From positions 1 through 19,342 of the forward strand of contig CAIMUU010000049.1 of the NCBI GenBank assembly GCA_903844835.1: DNA of 19,342 nucleotides. The letters run 5' to 3'. The position numbers were made by a program, and so were the translations under genes. The notes under the pieces are model-generated. The model saw only the letters and a list, made by a program, of their open reading frames with translations. It had not been told where the DNA came from and did not search any database. Positions 2,479-16,853 of the stretch are shown piece by piece (the stretch's first letter is position 1; each line of letters begins with the position of its first letter). The stretch is from an uncultured bacterium (GTDB lineage Bacteria > Patescibacteriota > Saccharimonadia > Saccharimonadales > Saccharimonadaceae).

Positions 2479-3066
2479 GTGAATAAGAAACAAATACTTC
2501 TTGAGCAAATTGCGGTAGATATTATTAAAAACAATATCTGCCCAGATTTGGCTCAAGAAGCCAAGAACCTAGTGATGGGCGATGGTAATATTGACGCCGA
2601 AATCATTCTAATTGGTGAAGCGCCAGGCAAAAAAGAGGATGAGACGGGGTTGCCATTTGTAGGGGCTGCTGGCAAATTTTTGAATGAAATGCTAGCTGGT
2701 GCCGATATTAATCGAAGTGACGTGTTCATTACAAATATTGTTAAATACCGGCCACCCAATAATCGTGATCCATTACCGGAAGAAAAAGCAGCCTTTTGGC
2801 CATACTTGGTACGTCAGCTGGACGTCATACAACCACAAATTGTTGTGACATTAGGCCGACATAGCATGGAATATTTTCTTCCGAACCAAAAGATAAGTTT
2901 AATTCACGGCCAGCCAAAAAGGATAAAATTTGGTGACAGTAAATTAGTAGTTGTACCGCTATACCATCCAGCCGCTGCACTTTATAACGGCGGTATGCGA
3001 GCCACACTAATAGATGACTTTAAAAAGTTACCAAAAATAATCGAAATTATAAAAAATAATAAATAA
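2479..3066 (+). CDS. Uracil-DNA glycosylase superfamily protein, family-4-like (SPO1 DNA polymerase-related type)
   Basis: 195 aa with a GTG start. Motif A is IGEAPGKKEDETGLPFVGAAGKFLNEML. NIVKYRPPNNRDP and motif B PLYHPAAALYN are also present. The protein contains only one cysteine (see finding). Confidence 0.85.
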   Translation: MNKKQILLEQIAVDIIKNNICPDLAQEAKNLVMGDGNIDAEIILIGEAPGKKEDETGLPFVGAAGKFLNEMLAGADINRSDVFITNIVKYRPPNNRDPLPEEKAAFWPYLVRQLDVIQPQIVVTLGRHSMEYFLPNQKISLIHGQPKRIKFGDSKLVVVPLYHPAAALYNGGMRATLIDDFKKLPKIIEIIKNNK

Positions 3067-3112
3067 TAACCATTGAAATTTCATAGAAATTTTGTGGACA
3101 AGGAGAAAAAAT

Positions 3113-5263
3113 ATGGGTCAACAAAGACTCAAGAACGTCCAAGGAGACGACCAATCAAGACGACCGAATGTGCCAACCCGGCAGAGGTCAGACAATACCG
3201 TATTAAATAATACGACTATCAAAAGAGGTGAGGCCTACCGGGCTCAACGTCGCACCAGCGAGAATGTAAATATGCGGGCAAGCCAGCATGTTATTAATGT
3301 ACCAGTTAACAAATCAACCTATAACGGCTATGATGGCCGACAATATAGCCCAGTTGATAGTAAAAAACAGCCACGTTTTAACGGCCCAAAATTGCGGATT
3401 ATCCCTATTGGTGGCTTGGGCGAAATGGGCATCGGCAAGAATATGATGGCATTTGAATACGACAATGAAATTATTGTGATTGATTGTGGGCTATTATTCC
3501 CGGGGCCTGACTATCCAGGGATTAATTACATTATTCCTGATATTACATATCTAGAAGAGAACAAACACAAGATTCGAGCAGTGATTTTCACGCACGCCCA
3601 TCTTGACCATATTGGCGCTTGCCGTCATATATTAGAGAAAATTCCTGCACCAGTTTATGCGACCAAGTTTACAATCAATATGATCCAAAAAAACATGGAA
3701 GAGTCGAATGGCGATTATCTGCCACAGTATAATGAGCTGAATCCAGAAAGCCACGACCAAGTTCAGATTGGTGATAATTTCAGAATTGAGTTTGTCAGAG
3801 TTGACCACTCAATACCGGATGCTGCCGCGATTGTTATTCGAACTCCAATTGGAGTTGTCGTCCATACTGGCGACTGGCGTTTCGAAGATGCGCCAATTGA
3901 CGGTAAAAAATTTGATATGGCCAGATTGACTGAGATTGCCAGCAAAGAGGGCATTTTGATGCTACTAAATGAGTCAACTAACTGTGAATCTGATGGCTCA
4001 CATACCCATAACGAACTCGATATTCAAGAGAGTATCGGTCAAGTTATGGACAAATTTACTAACAGTCGAATTATTTTAAGTTGCTTTAGTAGCCACATTC
4101 ATCGCATGCAAGAGATTTTAGAAGAGGCTAAAAAACACGATCGCAAAGTATCATTTGCAGGCTATAGTATGATTCAGAATCTTGAAGTGGCACTGCGCAG
4201 TGGCGTAATCAAAGTTCCAAAAGACGTTGTCGTCAAAATGGAAGACCTCGTTAAATTGCCTGATGGAAAGGTCACGATTGTCTGTACTGGTTCTCAGGGT
4301 GAATTTACGGCTGTCTTGAATCGTATGGCTAGCGGTAGTCATAAATTTATCAAGATTAAAAATTCCGATGTAATTGTCTTTAGCTCGAACCCAATCCCAG
4401 GCAACGAAAAATATGTCACACACACGGTGGACGGCTTGATGCGAGAGGGTAGCGATGTTATCCAAAATAACAAAACTCACCTTACCGGCATAGGGCCATT
4501 ACACCTTTCGGGTCATGCCTATTATGCCGACCACGTTCAGTTAATAACTGCATTGAATCCAAAATACTATTTGCCAATTCACGGTGAGTTTCATATGTTG
4601 GTCCATAGTGCCGAGATTGCCGAAAAGATTGTCGGCATCAAGCGCGAAAATATCTTTGTTTGCGACAATGGTGACATAGTTGAACTAACTAATGATGGTG
4701 CCAGAAAGACCGGCCGAATTACGGTTGGTGGTGTTATGTATGACGACAGCGGCGCAATCGTTTCTGAAGTTGTTCTAAAGGACCGAATTCATATGGCTAC
4801 CGAAGGAATGTTTGTGGTCGTTCTGACTGTTCAGCGGGGTAGTGGACGGCTTATGACTAGCCCAGATATTATCAGTCGTGGTTTTATATACTTACGCGAT
4901 AGTGAGGAGTTAATGGGTACGATTCGCCAGTATCTCAAGCAAAAAGTTGCTAAGAGCTTTTCTGGCAAGCACGTTGATTTGGATGCCGTCAAAAAAGAAC
5001 TCAAAGACGAAATCACGCATATTTTGTATGACCAAACTAGGCGCACACCGATTGTTATTCCAGTAATCAATGAGATTGGTGGAAATAACAATATCAGTGG
5101 AGTCAATGCTCCGAATACTCGCACTCATCAACCTCAAGACAAACCAAGACAAAGCAGTAGTCAGTTTATTGCACCTGTTAAACCAGTCACTTTTCAATTG
5201 CCACAAGTGCCAGACTCTGAAGCAACCGAGCCACGTGGGCGAATTGATTACCGCGGTTATTAG
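3113..5263 (+). CDS. rnj: Ribonuclease J (metallo-beta-lactamase / beta-CASP RNase) with long N- and C-terminal low-complexity extensions
   Basis: Diagnostic motifs are LRIIPIGGLGEMGKNM, the HxHxDH motif FTHAHLDHIG, HTGDWRF, GSQGE and HLSGHA. I prefer the ATG at 3113 (SD aaggaga at 3100-3106) over the TTG at 3092 used by the ORF track. Confidence 0.92.
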   Translation: MGQQRLKNVQGDDQSRRPNVPTRQRSDNTVLNNTTIKRGEAYRAQRRTSENVNMRASQHVINVPVNKSTYNGYDGRQYSPVDSKKQPRFNGPKLRIIPIGGLGEMGIGKNMMAFEYDNEIIVIDCGLLFPGPDYPGINYIIPDITYLEENKHKIRAVIFTHAHLDHIGACRHILEKIPAPVYATKFTINMIQKNMEESNGDYLPQYNELNPESHDQVQIGDNFRIEFVRVDHSIPDAAAIVIRTPIGVVVHTGDWRFEDAPIDGKKFDMARLTEIASKEGILMLLNESTNCESDGSHTHNELDIQESIGQVMDKFTNSRIILSCFSSHIHRMQEILEEAKKHDRKVSFAGYSMIQNLEVALRSGVIKVPKDVVVKMEDLVKLPDGKVTIVCTGSQGEFTAVLNRMASGSHKFIKIKNSDVIVFSSNPIPGNEKYVTHTVDGLMREGSDVIQNNKTHLTGIGPLHLSGHAYYADHVQLITALNPKYYLPIHGEFHMLVHSAEIAEKIVGIKRENIFVCDNGDIVELTNDGARKTGRITVGGVMYDDSGAIVSEVVLKDRIHMATEGMFVVVLTVQRGSGRLMTSPDIISRGFIYLRDSEELMGTIRQYLKQKVAKSFSGKHVDLDAVKKELKDEITHILYDQTRRTPIVIPVINEIGGNNNISGVNAPNTRTHQPQDKPRQSSSQFIAPVKPVTFQLPQVPDSEATEPRGRIDYRGY

Positions 5264-5296
5264 ATAATTGCCAGTTAGCAGTTAACCATTAGCTAC

Positions 5297-5325
5297 TTGC
5301 AAAATGTAGTAATTTTTGCTATAAT
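5297..5325 (+). promoter_or_regulatory. Near-consensus sigma70-type promoter upstream of ftsK (TTGCAA, 17-nt spacer, TGc TATAAT)
   Basis: ttgcaa at 5297-5302, a 17-nt spacer ending in TGc, and tataat at 5320-5325, about 40 nt upstream of the ftsK ATG. Confidence 0.45.
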
Positions 5326-5365
5326 ACACTTAATAAATACCTAAAGCGCTTATAATAGAATAAAT

Positions 5366-7627
5366 ATGACAAAAAGAAAAAAACACCACAAAAATAAAGG
5401 GCTGAACAAACCGGCTGTAAAGCATAGTTTGCCTATTGGTTTTTGGTCGCAGATTGGTGCTGTGTTTTTGCTGGCTGTCTCTGTATTATTTGTCGTTGCG
5501 TGGTTTAATGCTGGTGGGCCAGTTCTAGAATGGCTACATATGGCGACTATCGCCACTATTGGCTATTCGATGTATGTCGTACCGGTATTGTTTGTCTATG
5601 TTGCAATTGAAATTTTTAGAGCCGAAGACAATCGTCTGCCGTTTGCGATGAAACTTTCAACCGCTTCGGCTATACTGTGGTTTTCGTCATTATTTGGCTT
5701 ACTCAAAAATGACAGTGGCCAAACAACCGGTGGCTTTGTCGGTGACATAATCAATAAAGGCGTGTTAGCTTTGGTTAATTCTAGTGTTGCCGCCTTTATC
5801 TATATATTATTTATTGTAATTACTTTGTTGTTCATTTTGCGCGTATCACCACTATCAATTATCAAGAAAATCTGGGAACTGAGTCGTCGCGACACGGCTG
5901 AACACGATGCTAATGTCAAAGTCATGCGTAATGTTGCTGCACTTGATTCGACCAAGATGAATATTGGTAATTTCAAGCTTAACGCGGGCGTACCAACACT
6001 GGATCAAGATTCAATTGATGCCGACAAAAGGCAGTTGAAGCGCTCTGGCCCATCAGGTAGCTTTGGAAGGGATAGGGTCGCCGAAGACCAAACTGCACTT
6101 GTGACCGTTAGAGACCCAAATTGGGAAGCGCCTAGTCTCGATTTACTAGAGAAAAAACAATCTCCAGCTGATGCAGGTGATATCAAACAGAACGCTGCCA
6201 TAATTAAGAACACGCTAAATGAATTTGATATTGATGTCGAGATGGAAGGTGCAAATATCGGTCCACGCGTGACGCAGTTTACACTTCGTCCCCCAAGTGG
6301 TGTTAAGTTAACTCGCATTACCGCTCTTGAAACAAACATTGCACTTAATCTAGCGGCCCAGAGCTTGCGTATTGAAGCGCCGATTCCAGGCAAGAGTGTA
6401 GTTGGTATTGAAGTGCCTAATCGTCGTGCCGCTGATGTGCGTATTTATTCAGTGCTGTCTAGTCCTAAATGGGATGCGAATACCGAGCCGTTAGCGTTTG
6501 CGATTGGCAAGGACATTGCCGGCGACTCAATTGTCGGCGAGCTCAACAAGATGCCCCATCTATTGATCGCCGGCCAAACTGGTTCGGGTAAATCTGTTAT
6601 GATTAACACTCTTCTGATTAGCTTACTATACCGTAACAGCCCAAGTGAGATGCGACTGATTCTGGTTGACCCAAAACGAGTTGAAATGGCTCAGTACCAG
6701 GATATTCCACATCTATTGACGCCAATTATTACTGAACCAGACAAGACGATTAGTGCACTCAAATGGGCCGTCAACGAGATGGAAAGACGCTATCATTTAT
6801 TGGCTGAGAGTAAAGTCAAAGACATTAAATCTTATAATCAAAAAATGCAATCTACTGGCAATCGCATTACTGTAGCCGATGAATACGGCATTCCTCAAGA
6901 ACACGAAAATGGCGCGATGCCATATATCGTAATTGTGGTTGATGAGTTGGCCGACCTTATGATGGCAGCGGCGCGCGATGTTGAAGCTTTGATTGTTAGA
7001 TTGGCTCAAAAGGCTAGGGCAGTAGGTATTCACTTGGTGCTAGCGACGCAAAGTCCAAGAGCGGACATTATTACCGGTCTAATCAAGGCAAACATATCGG
7101 CTCGTATTGCCTTTACGGTCGCCTCACAACTTGATAGCCGAATCATCTTGGACCAGGGTGGGGCCGAGAAGTTGCTTGGTCAAGGCGATATGTTGTATGT
7201 CACCGCCAGCATGAGCAAGCCAAAACGTATTCAAGGCGCGTGGGTAACTGACGAAGAAATGACAAAAGTGACTAACCATTTGCACATGCAAGCTCCGCCA
7301 CAGTACAACGATGAAGTTGTCAGCCAACCAGTCCATCTTAATGGCAAGGGTGGCGTTGTTATGGACTTTGACACAAGTAACGAAGACGATATGTATAAAG
7401 ACGCTGTTCGCGTAGTGATTGAGGCAAACAAGGCTAGTGCTAGCTTGTTACAGCGTCGCTTGCGCGTAGGCTATGCTAGGGCAGCTCGTTTGATTGAAAA
7501 TATGGAAGATCAAGGCATTATTGGCCCAGCTGATGGCGCAAGGTCCCGTGAAGTGCTTATATCGAGTGTTGATGAACTTGGCGGCAGTAGCATTAATGGC
7601 TCGTCTGATGATGATTTTGCTGAATAG
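5366..7627 (+). CDS. ftsK: DNA translocase FtsK/SpoIIIE
   Basis: 753 aa. The N-terminus has multiple hydrophobic helices, followed by a linker and a motor domain with Walker A (GQTGSGKS) and Walker B (YIVIVVDELADL). The C-terminal gamma winged-helix reads LLQRRLRVGYARAARLIENMEDQGIIGP. Confidence 0.94.
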   Translation: MTKRKKHHKNKGLNKPAVKHSLPIGFWSQIGAVFLLAVSVLFVVAWFNAGGPVLEWLHMATIATIGYSMYVVPVLFVYVAIEIFRAEDNRLPFAMKLSTASAILWFSSLFGLLKNDSGQTTGGFVGDIINKGVLALVNSSVAAFIYILFIVITLLFILRVSPLSIIKKIWELSRRDTAEHDANVKVMRNVAALDSTKMNIGNFKLNAGVPTLDQDSIDADKRQLKRSGPSGSFGRDRVAEDQTALVTVRDPNWEAPSLDLLEKKQSPADAGDIKQNAAIIKNTLNEFDIDVEMEGANIGPRVTQFTLRPPSGVKLTRITALETNIALNLAAQSLRIEAPIPGKSVVGIEVPNRRAADVRIYSVLSSPKWDANTEPLAFAIGKDIAGDSIVGELNKMPHLLIAGQTGSGKSVMINTLLISLLYRNSPSEMRLILVDPKRVEMAQYQDIPHLLTPIITEPDKTISALKWAVNEMERRYHLLAESKVKDIKSYNQKMQSTGNRITVADEYGIPQEHENGAMPYIVIVVDELADLMMAAARDVEALIVRLAQKARAVGIHLVLATQSPRADIITGLIKANISARIAFTVASQLDSRIILDQGGAEKLLGQGDMLYVTASMSKPKRIQGAWVTDEEMTKVTNHLHMQAPPQYNDEVVSQPVHLNGKGGVVMDFDTSNEDDMYKDAVRVVIEANKASASLLQRRLRVGYARAARLIENMEDQGIIGPADGARSREVLISSVDELGGSSINGSSDDDFAE

Positions 7628-7675
7628 CTTCAATTATTAAAATAATAAACGTAGTATAAACCATATAATTGCAAA

Positions 7676-7688
7676 TCAAAACGTAAAA
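7676..7688 (+). repeat. Left copy of a short direct repeat flanking the pilin gene (tcaaaacgtaaaa)
   Basis: The exact 11-mer aaaacgtaaaa at 7678-7688 recurs at 8711-8721. The left copy ends 13 nt before the pilin ATG. The right copy starts 22 nt after the pilin stop. Confidence 0.4.
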
Positions 7689-7701
7689 CAAGGAAAGTAC
7701 G

Positions 7702-8688
7702 ATGCTCAGTATCTACCCTAAAAGATTAAAACATCTTAAGGTTATCAATAAAGGTTTTACGATTGTAGAGTTGCTAGTCGTAATAGTAATTATTGGCATT
7801 CTGGCAGCTATAACTATAGTCAGCTATCGCGGAGTATCTCAACGCGCTAAAATTTCATCTATGCAATTTGATTTGTCTAATGCTTCAAGGCAGTTAAAAC
7901 TATTTCAAGTAGCTAGCCCAACGAACGATTATCCAACCGCAAACAATTGCTCAGCCCCTATTGCGACTGAAATTTGTCTAAAATCTAGTCGTGGTAATAC
8001 CTATACATATACACCTAATAATGCATCTAACCCTAAGACCTTTACGCTAACTGCGACTAATGGTACGACAGTCTATTCTGTAACTGATGTCACATCACCA
8101 ACCGCAGTAGTGTCATTAGCTATCTCTGACCCAGCTAACTGGTTACAGGTCGGCACTCAAGTATGGGCTAAATATAACCTGAATGTCGGCACTATGGTTA
8201 TTGGCGTAACTGACCAAACTAACAACTCAGTAATCGAGAAGTACTGCTACGACGACACTGAGAGCAACTGTACGACCTACGGTGCCATCTATCAATGGAG
8301 TGAAGCTATGCAATATGCTACGACAGCTGGTGCTCAAGGCATTTGCCCAGTTGGCTCACATATTCCAACCGATGCTGAATGGAAAACACTCGAAATGCAA
8401 TTGGGTATGACTCAGGTTCAAGCTGACGCTACCGACTTCCGTGGCACCAACCAGGCATATCAACTAATACCTGGCGGTAGTTCGGGGCTAAACATCCCAC
8501 TTGCCGGCGTCCGCAACTACTATGACGGTTCGTTTGGTGGCGATCTGTTGGTGGACGTCTACTTGTGGTCTAGTTCTGGGTCTGGTAGTAATGCCTGGGG
8601 TCGCGGCTTTAGCGATATTAGTGGACTTGTGGATAGGATTTGGACCGACAAAGCTTACGGCTTTTCGGTTCGTTGCGTCGGAAATTGA
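7702..8688 (+). CDS. Type IV pilin / pseudopilin with a C-terminal FISUMP (Fibrobacter succinogenes major paralogous) domain
   Basis: 328 aa; SD aaggaaag at 7690-7697. The class III signal is MLSIYPKRLKHLKVINKG|FTIVELLVVIVIIGILAAI, with Glu at +5 after the predicted cleavage. A Cys83..Cys92 pair is present. From about aa 147 (nt 8140) the FISUMP hallmarks appear: VWAKYNLNVG, CYDD..C..YGAIYQWSEA, CPVGSHIPTDAEWKTLE, LPLAGVRNYYDGSFGG, YLWSSS, AYGFSVRCV. Confidence 0.88.
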   Translation: MLSIYPKRLKHLKVINKGFTIVELLVVIVIIGILAAITIVSYRGVSQRAKISSMQFDLSNASRQLKLFQVASPTNDYPTANNCSAPIATEICLKSSRGNTYTYTPNNASNPKTFTLTATNGTTVYSVTDVTSPTAVVSLAISDPANWLQVGTQVWAKYNLNVGTMVIGVTDQTNNSVIEKYCYDDTESNCTTYGAIYQWSEAMQYATTAGAQGICPVGSHIPTDAEWKTLEMQLGMTQVQADATDFRGTNQAYQLIPGGSSGLNIPLAGVRNYYDGSFGGDLLVDVYLWSSSGSGSNAWGRGFSDISGLVDRIWTDKAYGFSVRCVGN

Positions 8689-8706
8689 TTTGACCACTTT
8701 GATTAT

Positions 8707-8721
8707 TCAAAAAACGTAAAA
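8707..8721 (+). repeat. Right copy of the short direct repeat flanking the pilin gene (tcaaaaaacgtaaaa)
   Basis: See the left copy at 7676-7688. The wider context gattattcaaaaaacgtaaaaaagcc (8701-8726) also resembles caattattaaaataataaacgtagtataaacc (7631-7662), which lies just after the ftsK stop. Confidence 0.4.
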
Positions 8722-8757
8722 AAGCCAGAACCATTTGTCGCTAGTGTAATATTAGTC

Positions 8758-8844
8758 GCCAGATCACGCAAAGTGCTGATATCGAGTGTCGATGGATTGT
8801 CTGGCGGTACCAGCAGCTCTGATCTTTGTGACGAAGACCTCTAG
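8758..8844 (+). pseudogene. Ghost copy of the ftsK 3' end (start-less fragment, diverged from 7538-7627)
   Basis: In-frame reading gives ARSRKVLISSVDGLSGGTSSSDLCDEDL*. The true FtsK C-terminus is ARSREVLISSVDELGGSSINGSSDDDFAE*. The nucleotide core gtgctgatatcgagtgtcgatg matches gtgcttatatcgagtgttgatg at 20 of 22 positions. The ORF track reports no ORF covering it. Confidence 0.6.
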
Positions 8845-8861
8845 ATTTATCCACAGTTTGC

Positions 8862-8870
8862 TGTTATAAT
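8862..8870 (+). promoter_or_regulatory. Extended -10 promoter element for the rpsF operon (TGtTATAAT)
   Basis: tgttataat at 8862-8870, about 70 nt upstream of the rpsF ATG. The downstream context (tataatac) is the same as in the ftsK promoter. Confidence 0.45.
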
Positions 8871-8888
8871 ACAAGGGTTATTAACTCG

Positions 8889-8923
8889 GCTTGTATCTTA
8901 GTACAAGCATCCATAAGACGGAT
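8889..8923 (+). promoter_or_regulatory. rpsF 5' leader hairpins (possible S6:S18 autoregulatory leader)
   Basis: A perfect 7-bp hairpin, gcttgta-tcttag-tacaagc, spans 8889-8908. A 4-bp hairpin, atcc-ataagac-ggat, spans 8909-8923. Both sit directly upstream of the SD agaggagga (8927-8935). Confidence 0.3.
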
Positions 8924-8940
8924 TCCAGAGGAGGAAATCT

Positions 8941-9291
8941 ATGAAAGAATACGAACTAACAGTTCTAATTCATCCCGACCTAGAGGTCGACATCGAGACG
9001 CCACTTAAAAAAGTGCGCGGCCTAATTACATCTGCCGGTGGCAGTATTGTAAGTGAGGACAATTGGGGCAAGAAACGTTTAGCATATCGAATCAAAAACG
9101 AGGACTTCGCAGTCTACGTTTATTTTGATATCAATTTGCCATCCGACGCGCCTCTCAAGATTAGTAATGCGCTAAATATCTCAGACGAAGTATTACGCTA
9201 TTTATTGGTTGCGGTTGATTTGAAGGGTCGTAAGGCTCTTGAAGAAGCAAAAGCAAATGAGTTAACTAGAGACGCAAATCGAAAGGACTAA
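8941..9291 (+). CDS. rpsF: 30S ribosomal protein S6
   Basis: 116 aa with a strong SD. MKEYELTVLIHPDLE...WGKKRLAYRIKNEDFAVYVYF is typical of S6, and the gene sits in the canonical rpsF-ssb-rpsR order. Confidence 0.94.
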   Translation: MKEYELTVLIHPDLEVDIETPLKKVRGLITSAGGSIVSEDNWGKKRLAYRIKNEDFAVYVYFDINLPSDAPLKISNALNISDEVLRYLLVAVDLKGRKALEEAKANELTRDANRKD

Positions 9292-9296
9292 AACCT

Positions 9297-9737
9297 ATGT
9301 CAAAAAGTATTAACCAAGTAATTTTGATGGGACGCCTAACACGTGACCCAGAGCAACGAACAACTAGCACCGGTAAGGTGATTGTGAGTTTTAGTATTGC
9401 CGTTGACCGCTTTGGTCAAGACGATACAGCTGATTTTTTCAATGTTACAGCATGGGAAAAACTAGGCGAATTGGTAATGCAATATCTAGGTAAGGGCCGA
9501 AAAGTTCTAGTTCAGGGCCGTTTGCGACAAGATAGTTGGGACGACAAAGAGACTGGTAAAAAGCGCAGTAGTATCGAAGTAACAGCGACTGACGTGACAT
9601 TTTTGGACGGTCCAAATGACAAGGTTAGCGACAAGCAACCAAGCGAAAAGCCAAAAAGTTCAAGCAAAAAAACTGATGACGTCGTGATTGAAGATATTGA
9701 CGACAAACCTATTGATTTAAGTGAGATTCCTTTTTAG
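9297..9737 (+). CDS. ssb: Single-stranded DNA-binding protein
   Basis: 146 aa. The OB fold reads NQVILMGRLTRDPEQRTTSTGKVIVSFSIAVDR...FFNVTAWEKLGE...GRKVLVQGRLRQDSW. A disordered acidic tail ends in DLSEIPF. Confidence 0.94.
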   Translation: MSKSINQVILMGRLTRDPEQRTTSTGKVIVSFSIAVDRFGQDDTADFFNVTAWEKLGELVMQYLGKGRKVLVQGRLRQDSWDDKETGKKRSSIEVTATDVTFLDGPNDKVSDKQPSEKPKSSSKKTDDVVIEDIDDKPIDLSEIPF

Positions 9738-9767
9738 GAATTCGCCGATTGGCGAAGAAAGAAAATT

Positions 9768-9971
9768 ATGATAATTAAACGATTTAAAAAAGATATGCCA
9801 GCCTATTTTGACTATAAAGACGTCAAAACATTAGGGCGCTTTATTGATATTTATGGTCAAATCAAGTCTGTTAGCAAGACCGGCCTAAGCGCAAAACAAC
9901 AACGACAATTGTCGATTGCTATCAAGCGTGCCCGCCATTTAGCCATGATGCCATTTATGATTCAGGGTTAA
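9768..9971 (+). CDS. rpsR: 30S ribosomal protein S18
   Basis: 67 aa. DYKDVKTLGRFIDIYGQIKSVSKTGLSAKQQRQLSIAIKRARHLAMMPF is the S18 signature. Confidence 0.92.
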   Translation: MIIKRFKKDMPAYFDYKDVKTLGRFIDIYGQIKSVSKTGLSAKQQRQLSIAIKRARHLAMMPFMIQG

Positions 9972-9975
9972 TTAG

Positions 9976-10542
9976 ATGTCGTACTCACCAACTGAATTAA
10001 AGAAGGGGACTGTCATCCAAATAGATGGCAAGCCTTTTAGAGTAATCGAATATAACCAAAAAGTTGTTGGTCGCGGTGGTAGCATTGTTAACGTCAAAGT
10101 TAAAAACTTGATTGATGGCAGTGTAATACCAAAGACATTCAAGGGCCAAGAGAGAATTGAGCAGGCTGAAGTGTCTAGCCAAACTGTGCAATATTTGTAT
10201 ACAGATGGCACAAAATATTATTTTATGGATCCTGAAACTTTCGAGCAATTTGAATTATCTGCTGATATCGTTGAAGAGTCGGCTGGTTATTTTAAAGAAG
10301 GTGAAAACCTAGGCTTACAATCTTTCAACGGCAATATTACAAATGTGGAGTTGCCAAAGAACGTCTATCTTGAAGTCACCGAGGCTGAAAATGCCGTTAA
10401 GGGTGATACTAGCAGTAGTGTTTCAAAAGACGCCACTCTTGAAACTGGTTTGGTCGTAAGGGTCCCAGCTTTCATAAAAATTGGCGATATTATCTCAGTC
10501 GATACCGAGACTGGCCAATATCGCGAACGTAAAAAGGCCTAG
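9976..10542 (+). CDS. efp: Elongation factor P
   Basis: 188 aa, matching EF-P over the full length: GTVIQIDGKPFRVIEY, QYLYTDGTKYYFMDPETFEQ, GDTSSSVSKDATLETGLVVRVPAFIKIGDIISVDTETGQYRERK. The start is only 4 nt after the rpsR stop. Confidence 0.94.
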   Translation: MSYSPTELKKGTVIQIDGKPFRVIEYNQKVVGRGGSIVNVKVKNLIDGSVIPKTFKGQERIEQAEVSSQTVQYLYTDGTKYYFMDPETFEQFELSADIVEESAGYFKEGENLGLQSFNGNITNVELPKNVYLEVTEAENAVKGDTSSSVSKDATLETGLVVRVPAFIKIGDIISVDTETGQYRERKKA

Positions 10543-10548
10543 GTTGTA

Positions 10549-11379
10549 ATGCCAAAGCAACGGTTGGATGTAGCGTTAACTCAGCGCAAGTTAGCGGCCA
10601 GTCGTTCTCAGTCCGAAAATTGGATTAAATTAGGTAAGGTCTTAGTTAATGGTCAGGTTGTTATGAAACCTGGTCATTTTGTTGGCCCGGATGTTGATAT
10701 AAAAATTACGGCTGAAGTTCAATATGTTAGCCGGGCAGGCCTGAAATTAGAATCAGTTGCCGATGTGTTGAAGCTTGATTTTAGAAATAAAGTTGTGCTC
10801 GATGTCGGCAGTAGCACTGGTGGTTTTACTGATTTTGCCTTACGTCATGGTGCCAAGAAAGTATATGCAGTTGATGTTGGGACCGACCAAATGCATCCAT
10901 CACTGAGGCATAATAAACAAGTTGAATTACATGAAAAGACCGATATTCGTGACTATTTAATGGACGAAATGCCCGATATTGTTGTGATTGACGTGTCGTT
11001 TATTAGTTTGCGGGAAGTTTTGCCCCATATTTACAATTCGTTATCAGACAAGTCGACTCAAGTTGTAGCGATGGTTAAACCGCAGTTCGAAGTGCGTGCT
11101 GAAATTAACCAAAGCACGCATGCTGAGCGAAGCCGAAGCACTGTTAAGATGCCCAACCCTTCGACAGGCTCAGGGTTTTGCAGTTCTCGTAAGGGCGAGA
11201 ACGTGCTCAATAAGGGCGTTATTAAAAACGATTCGATGCGCCGTCAAATTCTAAAAGATTTCGAAGATTGGTCCCGAAAATATTTTGTTATTCAAAATAA
11301 ACGTGATAGTGATGTGGCTGGGGCAAAAGGCAATCAAGAGCGATTTTATTTATTGCGAGCAATAAATAAAATCAAGTAG
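10549..11379 (+). CDS. tlyA: TlyA-family rRNA 2'-O-methyltransferase (S4 domain plus FtsJ-like methyltransferase) carrying a 34-aa in-frame insertion
   Basis: 276 aa. The S4-like N-terminus is RLDVALTQRKLAASRSQSENWIKLGKVLVNG. The SAM-binding site is VLDVGSSTGGFTDFALRHGAKKVYAVDVG. VIDVSFISL, VKPQFE and a C-terminal GAKGNQERFYLL are also present. Confidence 0.87.
   Translation: MPKQRLDVALTQRKLAASRSQSENWIKLGKVLVNGQVVMKPGHFVGPDVDIKITAEVQYVSRAGLKLESVADVLKLDFRNKVVLDVGSSTGGFTDFALRHGAKKVYAVDVGTDQMHPSLRHNKQVELHEKTDIRDYLMDEMPDIVVIDVSFISLREVLPHIYNSLSDKSTQVVAMVKPQFEVRAEINQSTHAERSRSTVKMPNPSTGSGFCSSRKGENVLNKGVIKNDSMRRQILKDFEDWSRKYFVIQNKRDSDVAGAKGNQERFYLLRAINKIK
11107..11208 (+). repeat. Nested-palindrome element of about 102 nt inserted in frame in tlyA (boundaries approximate)
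   Basis: Inverted repeat pairs: agcacg/cgtgct (11113-18 / 11202-07); ctgagc/gctcag (11123-28 / 11168-73); cgaag/cttcg (11134-38 / 11159-63); tctcg/cgaga (11185-89 / 11196-200). The segment encodes NQSTHAERSRSTVKMPNPSTGSGFCSSRKGENVL. This falls where TlyA homologs, as I recall them, run KPQFE, about 8 aa, then KGG. Confidence 0.5.
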
Positions 11380-11431
11380 AAGATAGATTATAGATTTTGG
11401 ATTATAGTATAACAAAATTTGCATCTCAATG

Positions 11432-11463
11432 TTGTGTTACTGCATGGTTTTCGAGCAACACAA
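11432..11463. terminator. Candidate bidirectional terminator hairpin between the convergent tlyA and ychF genes
   Basis: ttgtgtt (11432-38) pairs with aacacaa (11457-63) across an 18-nt loop. On the minus strand the stem is followed by a T-rich run (caaattttgtt). The whole spacer is bracketed by the imperfect inverted repeat agattatagatttt / aaaatctatattctataatct. The stem is AT-rich and the loop large, so this call is weak. Confidence 0.25.
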
Positions 11464-11514
11464 ATTATTAGTGATAGTTTTTCGAGATTTATTCTAAAAT
11501 CTATATTCTATAAT

Positions 11515-12603
11515 CTACTGAGTTTTGCTGACGTTAAAGCGAAATTCGACAACGTCACCTGGTCGCATAACATATTCTTTGCCCTCAGTACGCATTTTGC
11601 CGGCAGTTTTTGCGGCAAATTCTGAGCCAGCTGTCATTAAATCGTTATAATCAACAATTTGAGCGGCAATAAAGCCTCTTTCGAAATCAGTATGAATAAC
11701 ACCTGCGGCTTGAGGCGCAGTTGCGCCTTTTTTGATTGTCCAGGCTCTGACTTCTTTTGGGCCTGCTGTTAGGTAGCTTTGTAGGCCGAGAATATCGTAG
11801 GCAGCATGAACTAGTTGTAGCAAGCCTGTTTCCTTGACGCCATAGCTGGCCAGCAATTCAGCAGACTCGTCAGGTAGTAGCCCGTTTAATTCATCTTCAA
11901 GTTTGGCGCAAACAAATATTGCCTTAGCGGGAGCGACTAGTTTAGCCAGCTCAGTTTTTCGGCTATCATTTACTAGCGTCTCTTCATCAACATTAAACAT
12001 ATAAATAACCGGCTTGGCAGTTAGTAGACTAAGGTCGGAAATATATTCCATATTAAGGTTTGGCAAAGAAGAGGCGAGAGTGCCGGCTTTAAGACGCTCA
12101 AGAAGCTCATTTAGGTAATCAACGATTGCTTTTTTCTTTGGCTGGACTTTCAGCTCTTTGATGACTTTCGGTAAATGAGATTCAATTGTTTGAATATCGG
12201 CCAAGATTAATTCGGTATTTATAATATCGATATCATCGCGTGGGTTAACTTTTTCAGAAACGTGGATAACACTATCATCATGAAAGGCGCGCACGATATG
12301 GATAATTGCTTCGCATTGGCGGATATTCGCCAAAAATTTGTTGCCAAGGCCTTCTCCTTTGCTAGCACCAGCAACAAGGCCAGCGATATCCACAAAAGTG
12401 ACGGTTGCAGGTATTATTTTTGGAGAATTATATAATTCAGCTAATTTACTCAATCGTTGGTCTGGCACAGGCACGATTCCGGTATTTGGCTCAATTGTTG
12501 CAAATGGATAATTAGCCACCAAGATATTATTGTTGGTTAGGGCGTTGAATAAAGTTGACTTCCCAACGTTTGGTAAGCCGACGATGCCAATAGATAAACT
12601 CAT
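11515..12603 (-). CDS. ychF: Ribosome-binding ATPase YchF (Obg-family GTPase/ATPase)
   Basis: 362 aa. G1 is GIVGLPNVGKSTLFNALT and G3 is VDIAGLV. The C-terminal TGS-like region reads RAWTIKKGATAPQAAGVIHTDFERGFIAAQIV. Confidence 0.94.
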   Translation of the reverse strand: MSLSIGIVGLPNVGKSTLFNALTNNNILVANYPFATIEPNTGIVPVPDQRLSKLAELYNSPKIIPATVTFVDIAGLVAGASKGEGLGNKFLANIRQCEAIIHIVRAFHDDSVIHVSEKVNPRDDIDIINTELILADIQTIESHLPKVIKELKVQPKKKAIVDYLNELLERLKAGTLASSLPNLNMEYISDLSLLTAKPVIYMFNVDEETLVNDSRKTELAKLVAPAKAIFVCAKLEDELNGLLPDESAELLASYGVKETGLLQLVHAAYDILGLQSYLTAGPKEVRAWTIKKGATAPQAAGVIHTDFERGFIAAQIVDYNDLMTAGSEFAAKTAGKMRTEGKEYVMRPGDVVEFRFNVSKTQ

Positions 12604-12760
12604 ATCAACATCATACAGAAACAGGGGAGATATTAAAAGCTCCAGAGGTTTATCGAAGTCTTTTATGTCTATTTTTTGATAGAGCTAGTTTCGCTGACTT
12701 TACTGCTGTTCAAACTGCATGATACTTATGTTATTATATAAGCAAATAGACAGGAGACTT

Positions 12761-13243
12761 ATGATTAAAAGGTTGGTATTTGTAGGTATAGCAGTAGCGA
12801 TATTAGCGCTTCTTAGTGGAGGAGTGTGGTGGTTATTCAGTAGTGGTCATTTAATATATTCTGCCTCGGGCCAATCGTCGACAACTGTTTGTAATGCAGA
12901 CATTGTTAACACATATAATGCTGCTATGTATTATCAGCCACGCAATGATGCGACCGAGTCTAGTATTGACCAGCAGGGGGTTAAGGATTTGGTGTCTGAA
13001 ATAAGGACCAAGTCAAATTTCGATGGCGACCCAACTTGCCAGACAATTATTTTTTGGTCGGCTGTTTTGGACGATAATTATAGTGAGGCTCGTACTGCCT
13101 ATGATGCAATAATGAATTTATATGAAAAGCGTGTTTTTGCTGACTCAAATTTAAGAAGCGATCAAGCACTTTTCACTTATGAGCAGGTTATGAACGGCTT
13201 GACGGTTTCGGGTATCATTGAGGATGGTATGTTTGGTGGATAA
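12761..13243 (+). CDS. Hypothetical membrane-anchored protein (N-terminal TM helix plus an extracytoplasmic, probably helical, domain)
   Basis: I prefer the ATG at 12761 (SD aggag at 12752-12756) over the track start at 12719. MIKRLVFVGIAVAILALLSGGVWWLF is a signal anchor. I recognise no family. The stop lies 1 nt before the ATG of the next gene. Confidence 0.55.
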   Translation: MIKRLVFVGIAVAILALLSGGVWWLFSSGHLIYSASGQSSTTVCNADIVNTYNAAMYYQPRNDATESSIDQQGVKDLVSEIRTKSNFDGDPTCQTIIFWSAVLDDNYSEARTAYDAIMNLYEKRVFADSNLRSDQALFTYEQVMNGLTVSGIIEDGMFGG

Positions 13244-13244
13244 T

Positions 13245-15749
13245 ATGCCAAAGTTACAAATAAGCCCCATCTTGCGACAAAATTTATTTACATCAAGCCT
13301 ATTATTGTTCGCTGTAATTTTGTCATTTGTTTTTGCCACACTCTTCCGCCAGCCGGTTTATGCTGATGGAGCTATTGGTGATGGCGGCCAACCCGGTAAT
13401 AGTTGTTCAGGAAATTATGCCTGTACCTCCAACGGCTGGGGATGGTATAGCTATCCGACAACTGGCACAATTAGGCCAAAATATTTTTCTAACGGCACCT
13501 CATGGAGTTCAGTGAGCGCTACATGCTCTAGTAAAGGGGCAGATCGAGTGGTGGCATTAATTATTCTTGAGGGTCCCGGCAAGACAGAACCGGACATTAA
13601 TAAAAAGGCCAACTGGGGCGTAGTTTATGATTATGTAGGCTGGTCTGATTATGTAACCCTTTATAATGGCAATTTAGGAACATATTGGCTCAAGACATCA
13701 GACGCCAAATCTAAATATGATTTTATGGAAGTAGCAAAACTTGGTTATACCTGGGGCGTTAATGTCGGTTGGTTTTGCTATTCTACAAGCCCCGCCTGGA
13801 CACTTAGTGCGACTACTACTAACAATAAGCCGTCGGGGACAGCTATGGAGGGCGAGACCATCCTTTGGACCAATAAGATAGTTAACAATGGCATTGGCAT
13901 AACGACCCACAACGTAAATAGCCAAATTGCTTTAACTAATTTTACTTCCGGGTTTTGGGGGGCGTCATCATTAGTCGCTGACGGCAACACGTCAGCCGGA
14001 GTGGCGGCAAGTGGTGTGAGTGGTTATTTGAGGGTCATAAGGTACACGAACGACAATTTTAATTCACCGCCAGATTACTCTACTTATGTTGCTCAGAAAG
14101 TCGATGTTGGCAAAACATTGTGTCAAAAAGTTCGATTTAATCACAAAGCGGGCGCTGCCGATCTTACTTACAGTTATGGAAATGATTCTTGTGTAACTAT
14201 TGTTAGCCCTTGGTCAATTACAGTTACCAGTTCCGCCAATGTTGTAACCGCCAAACCTGGGTCAGTCATCACTTGGACGCACACAGCAACTAATGCTGGT
14301 GCTAATTCGACAAATAAAGATGTTATTGTTACTCCTAGTGCTGGCAGTGGGAGTGGTACTTTGCTGTCTGGCTCTGTGCCTGGTGCTAAAAAGGCTATCA
14401 ATTCTACGTATACGGTGCTAACTAGTGATTCAGGTAGTACCTTGTGCCGTGCAACAGTCGCAACACCTCAAGCATGGGATAAAATAACTTCTATCACATC
14501 GACGCCAGCTTGCGTCACTATCCCACTCGACTATAACTTGGTCCCAGGCGTATCGCTCAACCCATCTGGGGTAATTGAGGCTGGGTCATCTTTTGAAGTT
14601 GCTACATCAATTAACAATTCTGGGACTACAGACAATAACCCAACAGCCACTTGGACTTTAGTTAGAACTCTATCTCAACCTGGTTTTGCCGATGTTGTTA
14701 CTAGCCAAACTGGCAATGGTCTATTGGTCCCTGCAAAAAGTTCCGTTGCTCCAATCGCCACCTTCGTTGATAATAGTACTGAAAAATTGGTTGGCACCCG
14801 CATTTGCTATGTCTTGACGGTCCAGCCATATTCAAGTATTGTGGCCGGTTCAACTAGTTCGGCGCCAGTTTGCGTAACTCTTGGCAAGAGGCCGAAGGCG
14901 CAAATATGGGGCGGTGATCTTTGGGCTGGTGGTAAAGTTCAGACCAGCCTGTCATCGAAGGGCGGCATTATGTTCGGCAGTTGGGACGAATATGGTATCT
15001 TCTCGGCAGGCGTAATTGATGGCATGGCATCTGGCTCTGCATTCTCGGGTTCTGGTCTTGCAGGTGTTACCTCGTCTTGTGACTATAGCTATCTAAGTTT
15101 TTCAAATGCACCAACTGGGCTAAGTAGTTGTAGTGGTTTGGCGGGGACAATCGGTAGCTATGCAGGGATACGAACTTCCCTAGATGTGGCATCTAGTTTT
15201 CCGGGCGGCACAGCTATTGCTGCTGGTGCGACAATTGATCCTAGCAGTTTAGCTGGTGGCACATATGTTGTTGCTGGCGATTTGACACTTAATGCCAGCA
15301 CTTTGCCCGCCAGCAAGTCAATTATAATAAAAGCTTCGGGTACAGTGACTATTAATGGCAACCAAGCATACTTTGGCGGTCCATTTGGCAGTGCTAGCCA
15401 GTTGCCACAGTTAATTATTACTGCAGATATTATTAACATTGCCGAAAGTGTAACAAATATTGATGCTTGGTTGGTTGCAAAAACCAGCATAAATACTTGC
15501 GCTTCAGTTGCAGTAGGCGCATCACTAACTTCCAGTATGTGTGATCAAAAGCTAGTCGTTAATGGCCCAGTTATGACAGACAAATTGTATTTGCGCCGAA
15601 CGGCCGGCTCTAACTCTGGCATTCAAAGTGGTGACCCGGCTGAAATATTCAATCTTCGACCAGATGCTTATCTTTGGGCAACTATGCGGGCCCAGTCTAC
15701 TGGGCGAGTCCAGACGGTCTATGTTACAGAATTACCACCAAGGTTTTGA
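13245..15749 (+). CDS. Large secreted/surface protein with three tandem CARDB/DUF11-like beta-sandwich modules and a Gly/Ser/Ala-rich C-terminal domain (putative adhesin)
   Basis: I prefer the ATG at 13245 (834 aa), which starts 1 nt after the upstream stop. The signal peptide is MPKLQISPILRQNLFTSSLLLFAVILSFVFATLFRQPVYA|DG. Three modules share a G-x-[IF]-x-[WV]-x(4,6)-N-x-G strand (GETILWTNKIVNNG, GSVITWTHTATNAG, GSSFEVATSINNSG) and a paired-Cys ending (TLC..18..CVTI; TLC..21..CVTI; RIC..21..CVTL). The sequence is rich in T, S, G and N. Confidence 0.7.
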   Translation: MPKLQISPILRQNLFTSSLLLFAVILSFVFATLFRQPVYADGAIGDGGQPGNSCSGNYACTSNGWGWYSYPTTGTIRPKYFSNGTSWSSVSATCSSKGADRVVALIILEGPGKTEPDINKKANWGVVYDYVGWSDYVTLYNGNLGTYWLKTSDAKSKYDFMEVAKLGYTWGVNVGWFCYSTSPAWTLSATTTNNKPSGTAMEGETILWTNKIVNNGIGITTHNVNSQIALTNFTSGFWGASSLVADGNTSAGVAASGVSGYLRVIRYTNDNFNSPPDYSTYVAQKVDVGKTLCQKVRFNHKAGAADLTYSYGNDSCVTIVSPWSITVTSSANVVTAKPGSVITWTHTATNAGANSTNKDVIVTPSAGSGSGTLLSGSVPGAKKAINSTYTVLTSDSGSTLCRATVATPQAWDKITSITSTPACVTIPLDYNLVPGVSLNPSGVIEAGSSFEVATSINNSGTTDNNPTATWTLVRTLSQPGFADVVTSQTGNGLLVPAKSSVAPIATFVDNSTEKLVGTRICYVLTVQPYSSIVAGSTSSAPVCVTLGKRPKAQIWGGDLWAGGKVQTSLSSKGGIMFGSWDEYGIFSAGVIDGMASGSAFSGSGLAGVTSSCDYSYLSFSNAPTGLSSCSGLAGTIGSYAGIRTSLDVASSFPGGTAIAAGATIDPSSLAGGTYVVAGDLTLNASTLPASKSIIIKASGTVTINGNQAYFGGPFGSASQLPQLIITADIINIAESVTNIDAWLVAKTSINTCASVAVGASLTSSMCDQKLVVNGPVMTDKLYLRRTAGSNSGIQSGDPAEIFNLRPDAYLWATMRAQSTGRVQTVYVTELPPRF

Positions 15750-15803: not shown

Positions 15804-16853
15804 ATGGCATTACTAAAAGGATTGGGTGACTTTTTTGCATTAGACATCGGTACGACCGCTGTTAGGGTGGTGCAACTTTCCCAATCTGGTTCAAATAGCT
15901 GGAATTTACAGCACTATGGCTATGCGCCGGTCGACGAGCGTATTACCAGCAGTAACACTGCAGAGGGCTTGCGTCGTCTCGGTGAGGTAATTATGACTGC
16001 GGTTGGCCAAAGTGGGATTAAAGCAAAGAATGTTGCTATTGGTTTGCCATCGAGCAAAACCTTTACAACGATTATTGATGTCCCGATGGTTAGCGAGGCT
16101 GAGTTAAAGAGCACAATTAAGTATCAAATTGACCAGTATATTCCGATGGCAATTAATGAAACAAAAGTTGACTGGGCACTTCTTGGCCAGTCGCTCCACG
16201 ACCCAAAACAGCAAGAGGTGCTTCTGGCCAGTACGGCCAACGCTTATGCCGAAGAGCGTCTTGAATTTATTGAAAGTCTTGGCTTTAACGTTATTGCCGC
16301 CGAGCCTGACCCAATTGCTATTGTTCGATCTTTGTTGCCAGTTGATGTGCGTGATGCTAGGTTGATAATTGATGTCGGCGAGCGGGCGACTGATTTGGCG
16401 ATTACTTTTGGTGATACGCCACGTCTTGTGCGAAATATCCCAATCGGTCTAGGCTCATTGATTAAAGTTGCAGTTCAGAATCTTAATGTCCAGGAAGACC
16501 AGGCAAGACAATTCATCTTGAAGTTTGGTTTGGCCCCAGATAGACTTGAGGGTCAGGTCTATCGTTCTATCGAAAGTACGCTAGAGAATTTTGCATCAGA
16601 ACTTATCAAATCGATAAAATTTTTCCAAACTCGTTATCCGAACACTCCAGTTGGCGGCATTCTACTGTCTGGTTTTTCGGCTGTGGTTCCAAAGTTTGGT
16701 GAATATATTACCGCAAAAACTGGGGTTCCTTCTTCGATTGCAAATCCTTGGCAGAGAGTTCACGTTGCTCAAGCCGACCAACAGCAATTGAGCTCAATTG
16801 CTGCTGAGTTTGCTACCGCAATTGGGCTCGCCGAAAGGAAAAACCTAAAATGA
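15804..16853 (+). CDS. pilM: Type IV pilus assembly protein PilM (actin-like ATPase fold)
   Basis: 349 aa. Motifs: FALDIGTTAVRVVQL, PSSKTFTTIIDVPMVSEAELKSTIKYQIDQYIPM, VIAAEPDPIAIVRSL, IIDVGERATDLAI. The stop overlaps the next start (ATGA). Confidence 0.87.
   Translation: MALLKGLGDFFALDIGTTAVRVVQLSQSGSNSWNLQHYGYAPVDERITSSNTAEGLRRLGEVIMTAVGQSGIKAKNVAIGLPSSKTFTTIIDVPMVSEAELKSTIKYQIDQYIPMAINETKVDWALLGQSLHDPKQQEVLLASTANAYAEERLEFIESLGFNVIAAEPDPIAIVRSLLPVDVRDARLIIDVGERATDLAITFGDTPRLVRNIPIGLGSLIKVAVQNLNVQEDQARQFILKFGLAPDRLEGQVYRSIESTLENFASELIKSIKFFQTRYPNTPVGGILLSGFSAVVPKFGEYITAKTGVPSSIANPWQRVHVAQADQQQLSSIAAEFATAIGLAERKNLK

Follow-up and report, generated by a model that had tools for sequence, protein, structure and literature searches.

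In a 19,342-nt stretch of DNA from an uncultured bacterium of the Saccharimonadaceae (Saccharibacteria, TM7), i.e., the forward strand of contig CAIMUU010000049.1 (GCA_903844835.1), hereafter the window, the 3' end of ftsK is found twice. The second copy at 8758–8844, which we call the ghost, lies between a gene for a type IV pilin with a FISUMP domain and rpsF. It is a diverged copy of the functional ftsK end at 7538–7627, and comparison with a related genome indicates that it is the original ftsK tail, still in place. We consider it probable that this native tail was displaced when a pilin gene was imported together with a replacement tail, most likely by homology-facilitated illegitimate recombination (HFIR) after natural transformation. 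What we infer from the layout of the scar is HFIR itself and, with it, the route by which the DNA came in, who the donor was and where the left crossover lies.

Gene identities were taken from Pfam scans of the 19 largest open reading frames (ORFs) of the window. Handles such as L001 or L081 denote comparison loci or contigs from other genomes and metagenomes. The features of the ftsK–rpsF region are the following.

5366–7627, + strand: ftsK, intact, 753 amino acids (Pfam FtsK_4TM, FtsK_alpha, FtsK_SpoIIIE and FtsK_gamma, the last at residues 672–732)
7538–7627, + strand: present functional ftsK 3' end, repeat copy 1, codons 725–753 plus stop, reads ARSREVLISSVDELGGSSINGSSDDDFAE then stop
7551–7574, + strand: core copy 1, 24 nt, AAGTGCTTATATCGAGTGTTGATG, two mismatches versus 8771–8794
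7628–7701, + strand: ftsK–pilin spacer, 74 bp, presumed pilin promoter and ribosome-binding site as read from the sequence
7702–8688, + strand: type IV pilin-like gene with C-terminal Fib_succ_major (FISUMP) domain, 328 amino acids (Pfam N_methyl and Fib_succ_major)
8689–8757, + strand: pilin 3' flank, 69 bp, opens with TTTGACCaCTTTGAtt...ACGTAAAA; ghost junction at about 8752–8757
8758–8844, + strand: ghost, in our reading the displaced native ftsK 3' end, 28 codons plus TAG (8842–8844), reads ARSRKVLISSVDGLSGGTSSSDLCDEDL then stop
8771–8794, + strand: core copy 2, 24 nt, AAGTGCTGATATCGAGTGTCGATG
8845–8940, + strand: native ftsK–rpsF intergenic region, with extended −10 TGtTATAAT (8862–8870) and rpsF leader hairpin (8889–8908)
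8941–9291, + strand: rpsF, first gene of the rpsF-ssb-rpsR-efp block (Pfam Ribosomal_S6, SSB, Ribosomal_S18 and EFP)

The 3' end of ftsK is duplicated

An earlier note on this DNA had described 8758–8844 as a parallel of the FtsK C-terminus at 7538–7627, and local alignment confirmed this. Positions 7537–7592 and 8757–8812 aligned with a nucleotide score of 45, compared with a mean of 17.9 (standard deviation 2.3, maximum 32) in 1000 dinucleotide-preserving shuffles, and the ghost's next-best match elsewhere in the window scored just 26. An independent repeat search returned the same pair as the longest and top-ranking direct repeat of the window (56 nt, 73% ungapped identity, spacing 1220 nt). 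The ghost aligns to FtsK residues 725–753; the FtsK gamma domain ends at residue 732. The near-identical core has two mismatches as described before, its length being 24 nt and hence slightly better than the 22 nt claimed. It contains an 11-nt perfect run and is 92% identical between the copies, with less identity in the flanking codons. The acidic tails that follow differ by indels, again as described.

By contrast, an upstream extension of the ghost, suggested earlier from a tttgatt seed shared between about 7489 and 8698, did not hold. The respective regions (7441–7537 and 8689–8757) aligned with a score of 7 at a shuffle mean of 7.1, and we rejected the seed as an ftsK remnant. It is a chance-level match that is explained by a conserved motif following pilin stop codons, of which it is a part. 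The entire pilin 3' flank (8689–8757) showed no significant similarity to ftsK. Downstream of the two stop codons (7628–7701 versus 8845–8940) no significant homology was found either, with a score of 8 versus 7.9 in shuffles. A match ATAATA...TAT.AAC at 14 of 21 positions is visible between these post-stop regions in alignments; we do not claim it as homology.

Contig L081 (1604 bp, ERZ18659942) covers positions 7511–9114 of the window, including both junctions, with a single mismatch. L082, from assembly ERZ18659709, encodes an identical pilin protein; this contig itself was not aligned to the window. Since separately assembled contigs of other samples share the arrangement, a single-sample assembly chimera is unlikely.

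The ghost corresponds to the ftsK end of a relative

In a one-genome-per-species scan with the FtsK C-terminus, the nearest relatives were Saccharibacteria with 70–86% amino-acid identity. At 45 Saccharibacteria loci with both genes, synteny is kept and rpsF-ssb follows ftsK. The ftsK–rpsF gap measures 67–150 bp in 17 of them, and the remainder carry 0.2–5.8 kb of unrelated cargo. Two close FtsK relatives, L174 and L175, have the direct junction with gaps of 111 bp and 88 bp, respectively; in L173, another close relative, a sigma-factor gene occupies it. By these gaps ftsK directly before rpsF is the common arrangement, which supports the proposal of the earlier note that it is ancestral.

A blastn comparison with the closest genome, L001 (FtsK C-terminus 84% identical), gave two collinear blocks at 4918–7580 and 8833–11090. 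We therefore place one insertion in the window between about 7580 and 8833; up to 7580, ftsK of the window is collinear with L001 ftsK. The last 12 nt of the ghost (GAAGACCTCTAG), its stop codon and the next 96 bp correspond nearly base for base to the real ftsK end and the intergenic region of L001. Moreover, the region 8845–8940 with its extended −10 and leader hairpin is conserved in L174 and L175 in a multiple alignment, and rpsF starts at a similar distance from the stop codon, 96 bp in the window versus 94 bp in L001. On this comparison the ghost is orthologous to the real end in the relative, and we read it as the original ftsK tail still in place. The match of its 3' end and downstream region with L001 agrees with the earlier claim that the old tail was displaced.

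The rpsF leader hairpin (GCUUGUAU...GUACAAGC, 8889–8908) and its flanks are kept in L001, L174 and L175. The leader (8871–8940) folds with z = −1.83 relative to shuffles and matched no Rfam family above threshold; it may be an autoregulatory leader for S6/S18.

Across Saccharibacteria (L002–L064) the ftsK–rpsF junction is a hotspot with changing contents. Among the cargo are a sigma-70 factor, nucleoside deoxyribosyltransferase, prephenate dehydratase, a BRO-N protein, DUF6498 and many unknowns, and also pilin-like genes (L005, L021) and FISUMP proteins (L050; a weak, sub-threshold fragment match in L043). The cargo ORFs tested at these junctions contained no integrase or transposase, and self-ghosts at relatives' ftsK–rpsF junctions all scored at chance level (13–27).

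We also considered whether the ghost is a functional element, namely a 23-residue ORF starting at GTG (8773–8844), a stretch added to the pilin by read-through, or a regulatory or RNA element acting on rpsF. Its frame is intact over 28 codons and is that of the pilin, with no stop between the pilin TGA and the ghost TAG, and it adjoins the rpsF promoter. The earlier statement that it lacks a start codon is correct for ATG, but an in-frame GTG at 8773 would open the 23-residue ORF. However, this GTG is a Val codon homologous to that of ftsK, no ribosome-binding site is seen upstream of it, and a 23-codon open stretch is not unusual by chance. Furthermore, the ghost has substitutions at otherwise acidic positions, its RNA folds no better than shuffles (z = +0.75) with no Rfam match, and relatives hold the orthologous sequence inside ftsK and not as a separate gene. 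We hence regard a functional ghost as the most improbable of the explanations examined here. Read-through of the pilin TGA (8686–8844) would append 51 residues ending in the old FtsK tail; the shared frame is probably a coincidence. The ghost is without detectable function, and in annotation such ghosts are pseudogene fragments that should not be called small ORFs.

The present ftsK tail carries the marks of another lineage

Within the 14 alignable core codons the two copies have 10 nucleotide differences and only 2 amino-acid differences. The Nei-Gojobori method assigned S = 11 and N = 31 sites to this core, with about 7 synonymous and 3 non-synonymous differences. When decay was simulated with one copy under selection and the other neutral, two or fewer amino-acid differences occurred in 0.7% of the runs (P = 0.007). 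We therefore conclude that both copies were coding and under purifying selection for most of their divergence. From the synonymous bias it follows that the present tail would have come from another lineage together with the pilin gene, in line with the earlier note, which had proposed their joint import and, as one of two options, a divergent donor.

Both copies carry a clade-specific ARSR signature that is found elsewhere only in L001 and a few fragments, most homologues having ARPR or SRPR. We therefore take the donor to have been a related Saccharibacterium. Although the acidic tails differ by indels, both resemble ordinary FtsK tails, and many relatives' FtsK end in ...DDL or ...EDL(G) like the ghost. 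Among about 120 FtsK homologues, nearly all have acidic residues at two positions that are K and G in the ghost; this suggests early decay after a recent relaxation of selection. As the ghost is still an open frame, the event should postdate the split from L001 by a wide margin.

Similar scars occur at other pilin loci

To compare the window with other pilin loci, we aligned the 500 nt upstream of each pilin gene with the 500 nt downstream at about 24 distinct loci. Four of these, i.e., the window, L102, L087 and L083, showed a significant target duplication, and none of the four had an integrase. In L102 (3916–3951 versus 4985–5020) the tail of clpP is repeated 18 nt after the pilin gene, reading YGLIDEVITKA* and YGLIDEVITNA*, with 4 synonymous and 1 non-synonymous differences (P = 0.066 for in-place decay). 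The L087 duplication (872–970 versus 2120–2217) comprises 17 codons from the very end of a GT4 glycosyltransferase gene together with a promoter region. This repeat is mosaic, with 52 identical nt followed by 47 nt of about 80% identity, and its ghost sits between two pilin genes. In L083 (4818–4925 versus 6030–6103) about 75 bp from upstream of tilS occur twice, the copies differing by a 34-bp indel. Thus 3 of the about 24 loci had a ghost of the coding end of the upstream gene. In a screen of 300-nt flanks of 451 non-pilin genes from the same loci, a flanking repeat score of at least 35 was reached at five genes, none of them with a ghost of an upstream coding end.

The distance from pilin stop codon to duplicated target varied (18, 38, 69 and 73 nt). 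We rejected an att-like core shared by the four targets, as only the 5-mer ATCGA occurs in three of them, which is expected by chance. Flanking repeats at L089, L119, L153, L165, L129 and L115 were promoters or terminators between tandem paralogues; they are not ghosts and were not counted.

In none of the four duplications are the differences between the copies predicted by simple in-place duplication. Such a process would have copied the ftsK tail on the spot, e.g., by template switching that also copied the pilin gene from the same genome, and the initially identical copies would have diverged later. Target duplications flanking insertions are a signature of template-switch repair, and the repeats of L083 and L087 are nearly identical. 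However, a neutral ghost should gain non-synonymous changes, which disagrees with the counts in the window (P = 0.007) and, less strongly, in L102 (P = 0.066). The acidic tails in the window differ by several indels with both still native-like FtsK tails, the L087 repeat is mosaic and the L083 repeat contains its 34-bp indel. In-place duplication is hence a very unlikely origin of the ghost.

Upstream of the L083 pilin a tRNA 5'-end fragment, CCAACTGAGCTACGCTACC (locus + strand), occurs twice, at 4601–4620 and 4721–4738. These fragments adjoin sequence that by eye resembles a tRNA gene cluster, and suggest that an older integration had already left a scar at this locus. In L054, efp lies between the copies of a 66-nt repeat of about 90% identity (7494–7559 versus 8321–8385), with a FISUMP-domain gene on the opposite strand just past it (8497–8826). 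In L100, a 23-nt near-palindrome, TTTGCAAGGTGACACCCTGCAAA, lies on either side of the pilin gene (3742–3764 and 5134–5156), and stem-loops with TTGCAAGG...CCTTGCAA arms follow the pilin genes of L092 and L094. The hairpins at L100, L092 and L094 may be shared terminators or a small dispersed repeat.

Insertion probably occurred by recombination anchored in ftsK

The insert in the window consists of the foreign tail, the 74-bp spacer, an intact pilin-FISUMP gene and the 69-bp 3' flank; the junction of the current ftsK tail and the spacer reads GATGATTTTGCTGAATAGCTTCAATTATT. Pfam scans of the 19 largest window ORFs gave no integrase or transposase, as the earlier note had anticipated for integrases, and neither was found among the genes called around pilin homologues on longer contigs. 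We rejected a transposable element, as no transposase was present and the repeat spans about 56–87 nt at 73% identity rather than 2–14 identical nt. No terminal inverted repeats were found around 7628–8757. No com genes were found within the window. Saccharibacteria are naturally competent in a comEC-dependent manner and integrate linear DNA by homologous recombination (PMC10633639), and displaced 3' ends of a comparable sort at type VI secretion system (T6SS) and Rhs loci have been attributed, as a proposal, to HFIR (PMC5361080).

We propose that a stretch of about 1.2 kb, donated by another, related lineage of Saccharibacteria, recombined into the ftsK–rpsF region. It would have carried a foreign ftsK tail (codons 725–753 plus stop), the 74-bp spacer, the pilin-FISUMP gene and its 3' flank. 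In HFIR, incoming DNA is anchored by homology at one end and joined illegitimately at the other. The ftsK ORF runs through the left side of the insert without a break and encodes a complete gamma domain. This junction is seamless and in frame and would therefore have been made by homologous pairing within ftsK, at or upstream of the 24-nt core. At the right junction (about 8752–8757) the pilin 3' flank would have been joined without homology to ftsK codon 725, so that the last 28 codons of the recipient, the stop codon, and the rpsF promoter and leader stayed downstream. That a short ghost was kept would be explained if joins were viable only when they spared the promoter of the essential rpsF operon. 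The seamless left junction, the apparently non-homologous right junction, the foreign tail, the lack of an integrase and the varied targets and distances together point to HFIR.

Several observations weigh against this proposal. Homologous recombination at about 75–80% identity is inefficient, and the argument from synonymous and non-synonymous differences rests on just 14 codons. A donor was not found among 120 FtsK C-terminal tails, the best being 86% identical and none having the current tail. In addition, the best pilin homologues are at most 68% identical and lie at other loci. Neither sliding nucleotide identity to L001 nor amino-acid identity to 12 relatives revealed a step that would mark the left crossover; such a step is not detectable as the nearest relative is only about 73–82% identical at the nucleotide level. 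About 20 of 24 related pilin loci show no ghost. Finally, the core with 92% identity between less similar flanks fits a short-homology single crossover or an att-like core equally well. With the crossover not located and the donor not found, a small probability is therefore left for a short-homology crossover at the core and for an att-like event catalysed in trans.

The att-like event would be site-specific integration: at the 24-nt core, a tyrosine or serine recombinase that acts in trans or has been lost would have inserted a small element with an ftsK 3' end in its attP, restoring ftsK at one junction and leaving the old end at the other. The layout is that of the classic attL and attR of elements that target gene 3' ends, and the core is near-identical within otherwise more diverged repeats. 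Nevertheless, no integrase domain was found in the window, in the surroundings of pilin homologues or in the tested junction cargo, and the insert is a single 1-kb gene. Related pilins have scarred unrelated targets (clpP, a glycosyltransferase gene, the tilS promoter region) without a common core, and the distance from pilin stop to target varies as given above. We therefore hold site-specific integration to be unlikely.

The short-homology crossover would be of the Campbell type, in which a circularised foreign fragment, with the pilin gene and no more of ftsK than its last 30 or so codons, recombined at the 24-nt core. The left 13 nt of the ghost would then be foreign and ftsK upstream of the core fully native. 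This would explain why the ghost starts only 13 nt upstream of the best-conserved core and why no foreign tract is detectable in ftsK, and the mosaic L087 repeat is equally compatible with it. However, transformation brings in linear single strands, and a circular intermediate is an extra assumption. Furthermore, 24 nt with two mismatches barely reaches, if at all, the length usually needed for RecA-dependent exchange. In their left 15 nt the copies fit donor and recipient alike, as each shares, by eye, 11–13 of 15 positions with relatives. We consider this crossover, too, an improbable origin of the scar, and HFIR the probable one.

The cargo is a FISUMP pilin with a conserved post-stop motif

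The encoded protein matched PF07963 (E = 2e-6) and PF09603 (E = 2.5e-25, profile positions 2–186 of 187) and is predicted to be a type IV pilin with an N-terminal methylation motif and a FISUMP domain. Its closest homologues are 64–68% identical and are encoded by single genes between housekeeping genes at differing loci, e.g., spoU-pilin-hisS, tRNA cluster-pilin-tilS, a pilin gene behind that of a class II aminoacyl-tRNA synthetase, and a pilin gene converging on dnaB.

Directly after the stop codon of FISUMP pilin genes at six distinct loci we found the motif TGATTTGACCnCTTTGA. It follows the pattern TGA-TTTGACCnCTTTGAC(T)ATTT... in the window (8686–8730), L084 (6018–6034), L087 (2044–2060), L091 (877–893), L099 (4577–4593) and L106 (2939–2955), and is present in L083 and L089 too. 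The loci that share it are unrelated. Every gene that bears the motif uses a TGA stop, and TTTGAC is repeated in it 2–4 times. It could be a regulator site, a −35-like box or a recombination signal. No terminator was found in the spacer 7628–7701 nor from the pilin gene to rpsF, and the latter region contained no Rfam family and no unusual RNA structure.

Two surveys of diversity-generating retroelements (DGRs) reportedly name Fib_succ_major repeatedly (PMC4159848, PMC5758913). We rejected the pilin gene as a DGR target, as a second copy of its 3' end that could be a template repeat was present neither in the window nor, tandem-array paralogues apart, in 20 related loci. The window ORFs scanned contained no reverse transcriptase domain, and none was found near the 20 related pilin genes.

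A broader reading would be that pilin-FISUMP genes of Saccharibacteria are integrase-free mobile cassettes of about 1.1 kb, marked by the TTTGACCnCTTTGAC element after TGA. One mechanism, acting again and again, would add them preferentially at promoters or 3' ends of housekeeping genes, supplying a new gene end and displacing the native one. We regard this as improbable. If it were true, ghost tails would record how episymbionts diversify and stack adhesin-like pilins via transformation.

Comparison with known systems

Experimental HFIR more often yields an insertion accompanied by a deletion. The outcome in the window differs from this, being a net duplication with a retained ghost. The window case is moreover derived from a natural scar, in contrast to experimentally observed HFIR, and its anchor was apparently about 75–80% identical instead of near-identical. 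As in HFIR, one junction is seamless and lies in a homologous anchor gene, the other apparently connects DNA without homology, about 1 kb of foreign cargo was gained without a mobile-element enzyme, and the host phylum is naturally competent (PMC10633639). HFIR has been described in naturally transformable Acinetobacter, Streptococcus pneumoniae and Pseudomonas stutzeri, according to the statements that cite this work in PMC5361080 and PMC3240628.

The arrangement also resembles the displaced or orphan 3' ends at rhs, cdiA and T6SS effector loci, where a module brings a new 3' end plus cargo and the old end persists downstream (PMC5361080). The L087 ghost between two pilin genes fits repeated events that build arrays. 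Unlike at those loci, the anchor is the essential housekeeping gene ftsK (clpP in L102) and not a polymorphic toxin gene with a variable 3' end; the replaced end encodes the same function, and the cargo is a pilin gene and not an immunity gene. With integrative elements in tRNA, tmRNA and protein-gene 3' ends the window shares the restoration of the end by incoming DNA and the functional and displaced repeats that flank the insert. It differs from them in having no integrase, no common att core, a single-gene insert and a varying distance from cargo to displaced end.

Integrase-free hotspots of horizontal transfer that are flanked by core genes are a general concept. The ftsK–rpsF junction is similar to these, as it bears unrelated cargo in many Saccharibacteria, and the cargo tested was without mobility genes. 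In contrast to the normal turnover of such hotspots, which is scarless via two homologous crossovers, the apparently non-homologous endpoint in the window left a datable remnant.

The scar thus belongs to a familiar class, in which a replacement end comes in and the old gene end is pushed aside; the phylum is new for it, and the gene concerned is an essential housekeeping gene. This core gene appears to have anchored the recombination and to have had its end replaced. In the ghost, nature has kept a clean record of the way in which an episymbiotic bacterium of the candidate phyla radiation (CPR) with a reduced genome gained a surface-protein gene without mobile-element machinery. This sequence evidence is consistent with transformation-driven gene gain in uncultured Saccharibacteria, competence having so far been shown only in cultured strains. 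As scars also lie beside pilin genes at clpP, the glycosyltransferase gene and tilS, displaced ends could be mined to date and trace pilin and adhesin acquisition in the phylum.

Other features of the window

The remaining genes identified with Pfam are listed below.

300–2411: pnp
2479–3066: UDG-family gene
3092–5263: rnj
From 8941 onwards, in order: rpsF, ssb, rpsR, efp, FtsJ-like methyltransferase gene, ychF (minus strand)
15804–16853: pilM

Between the convergent methyltransferase and ychF genes, positions 11368–11526 contain inverted repeats of 29–37 nt with 78–83% complementarity, which probably form a bidirectional terminator. Two ORFs of 174 and 843 amino acids (12719–15749) lie directly 5' of pilM. 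Pfam gave no match for either; they may encode lineage-specific pilus-associated proteins.

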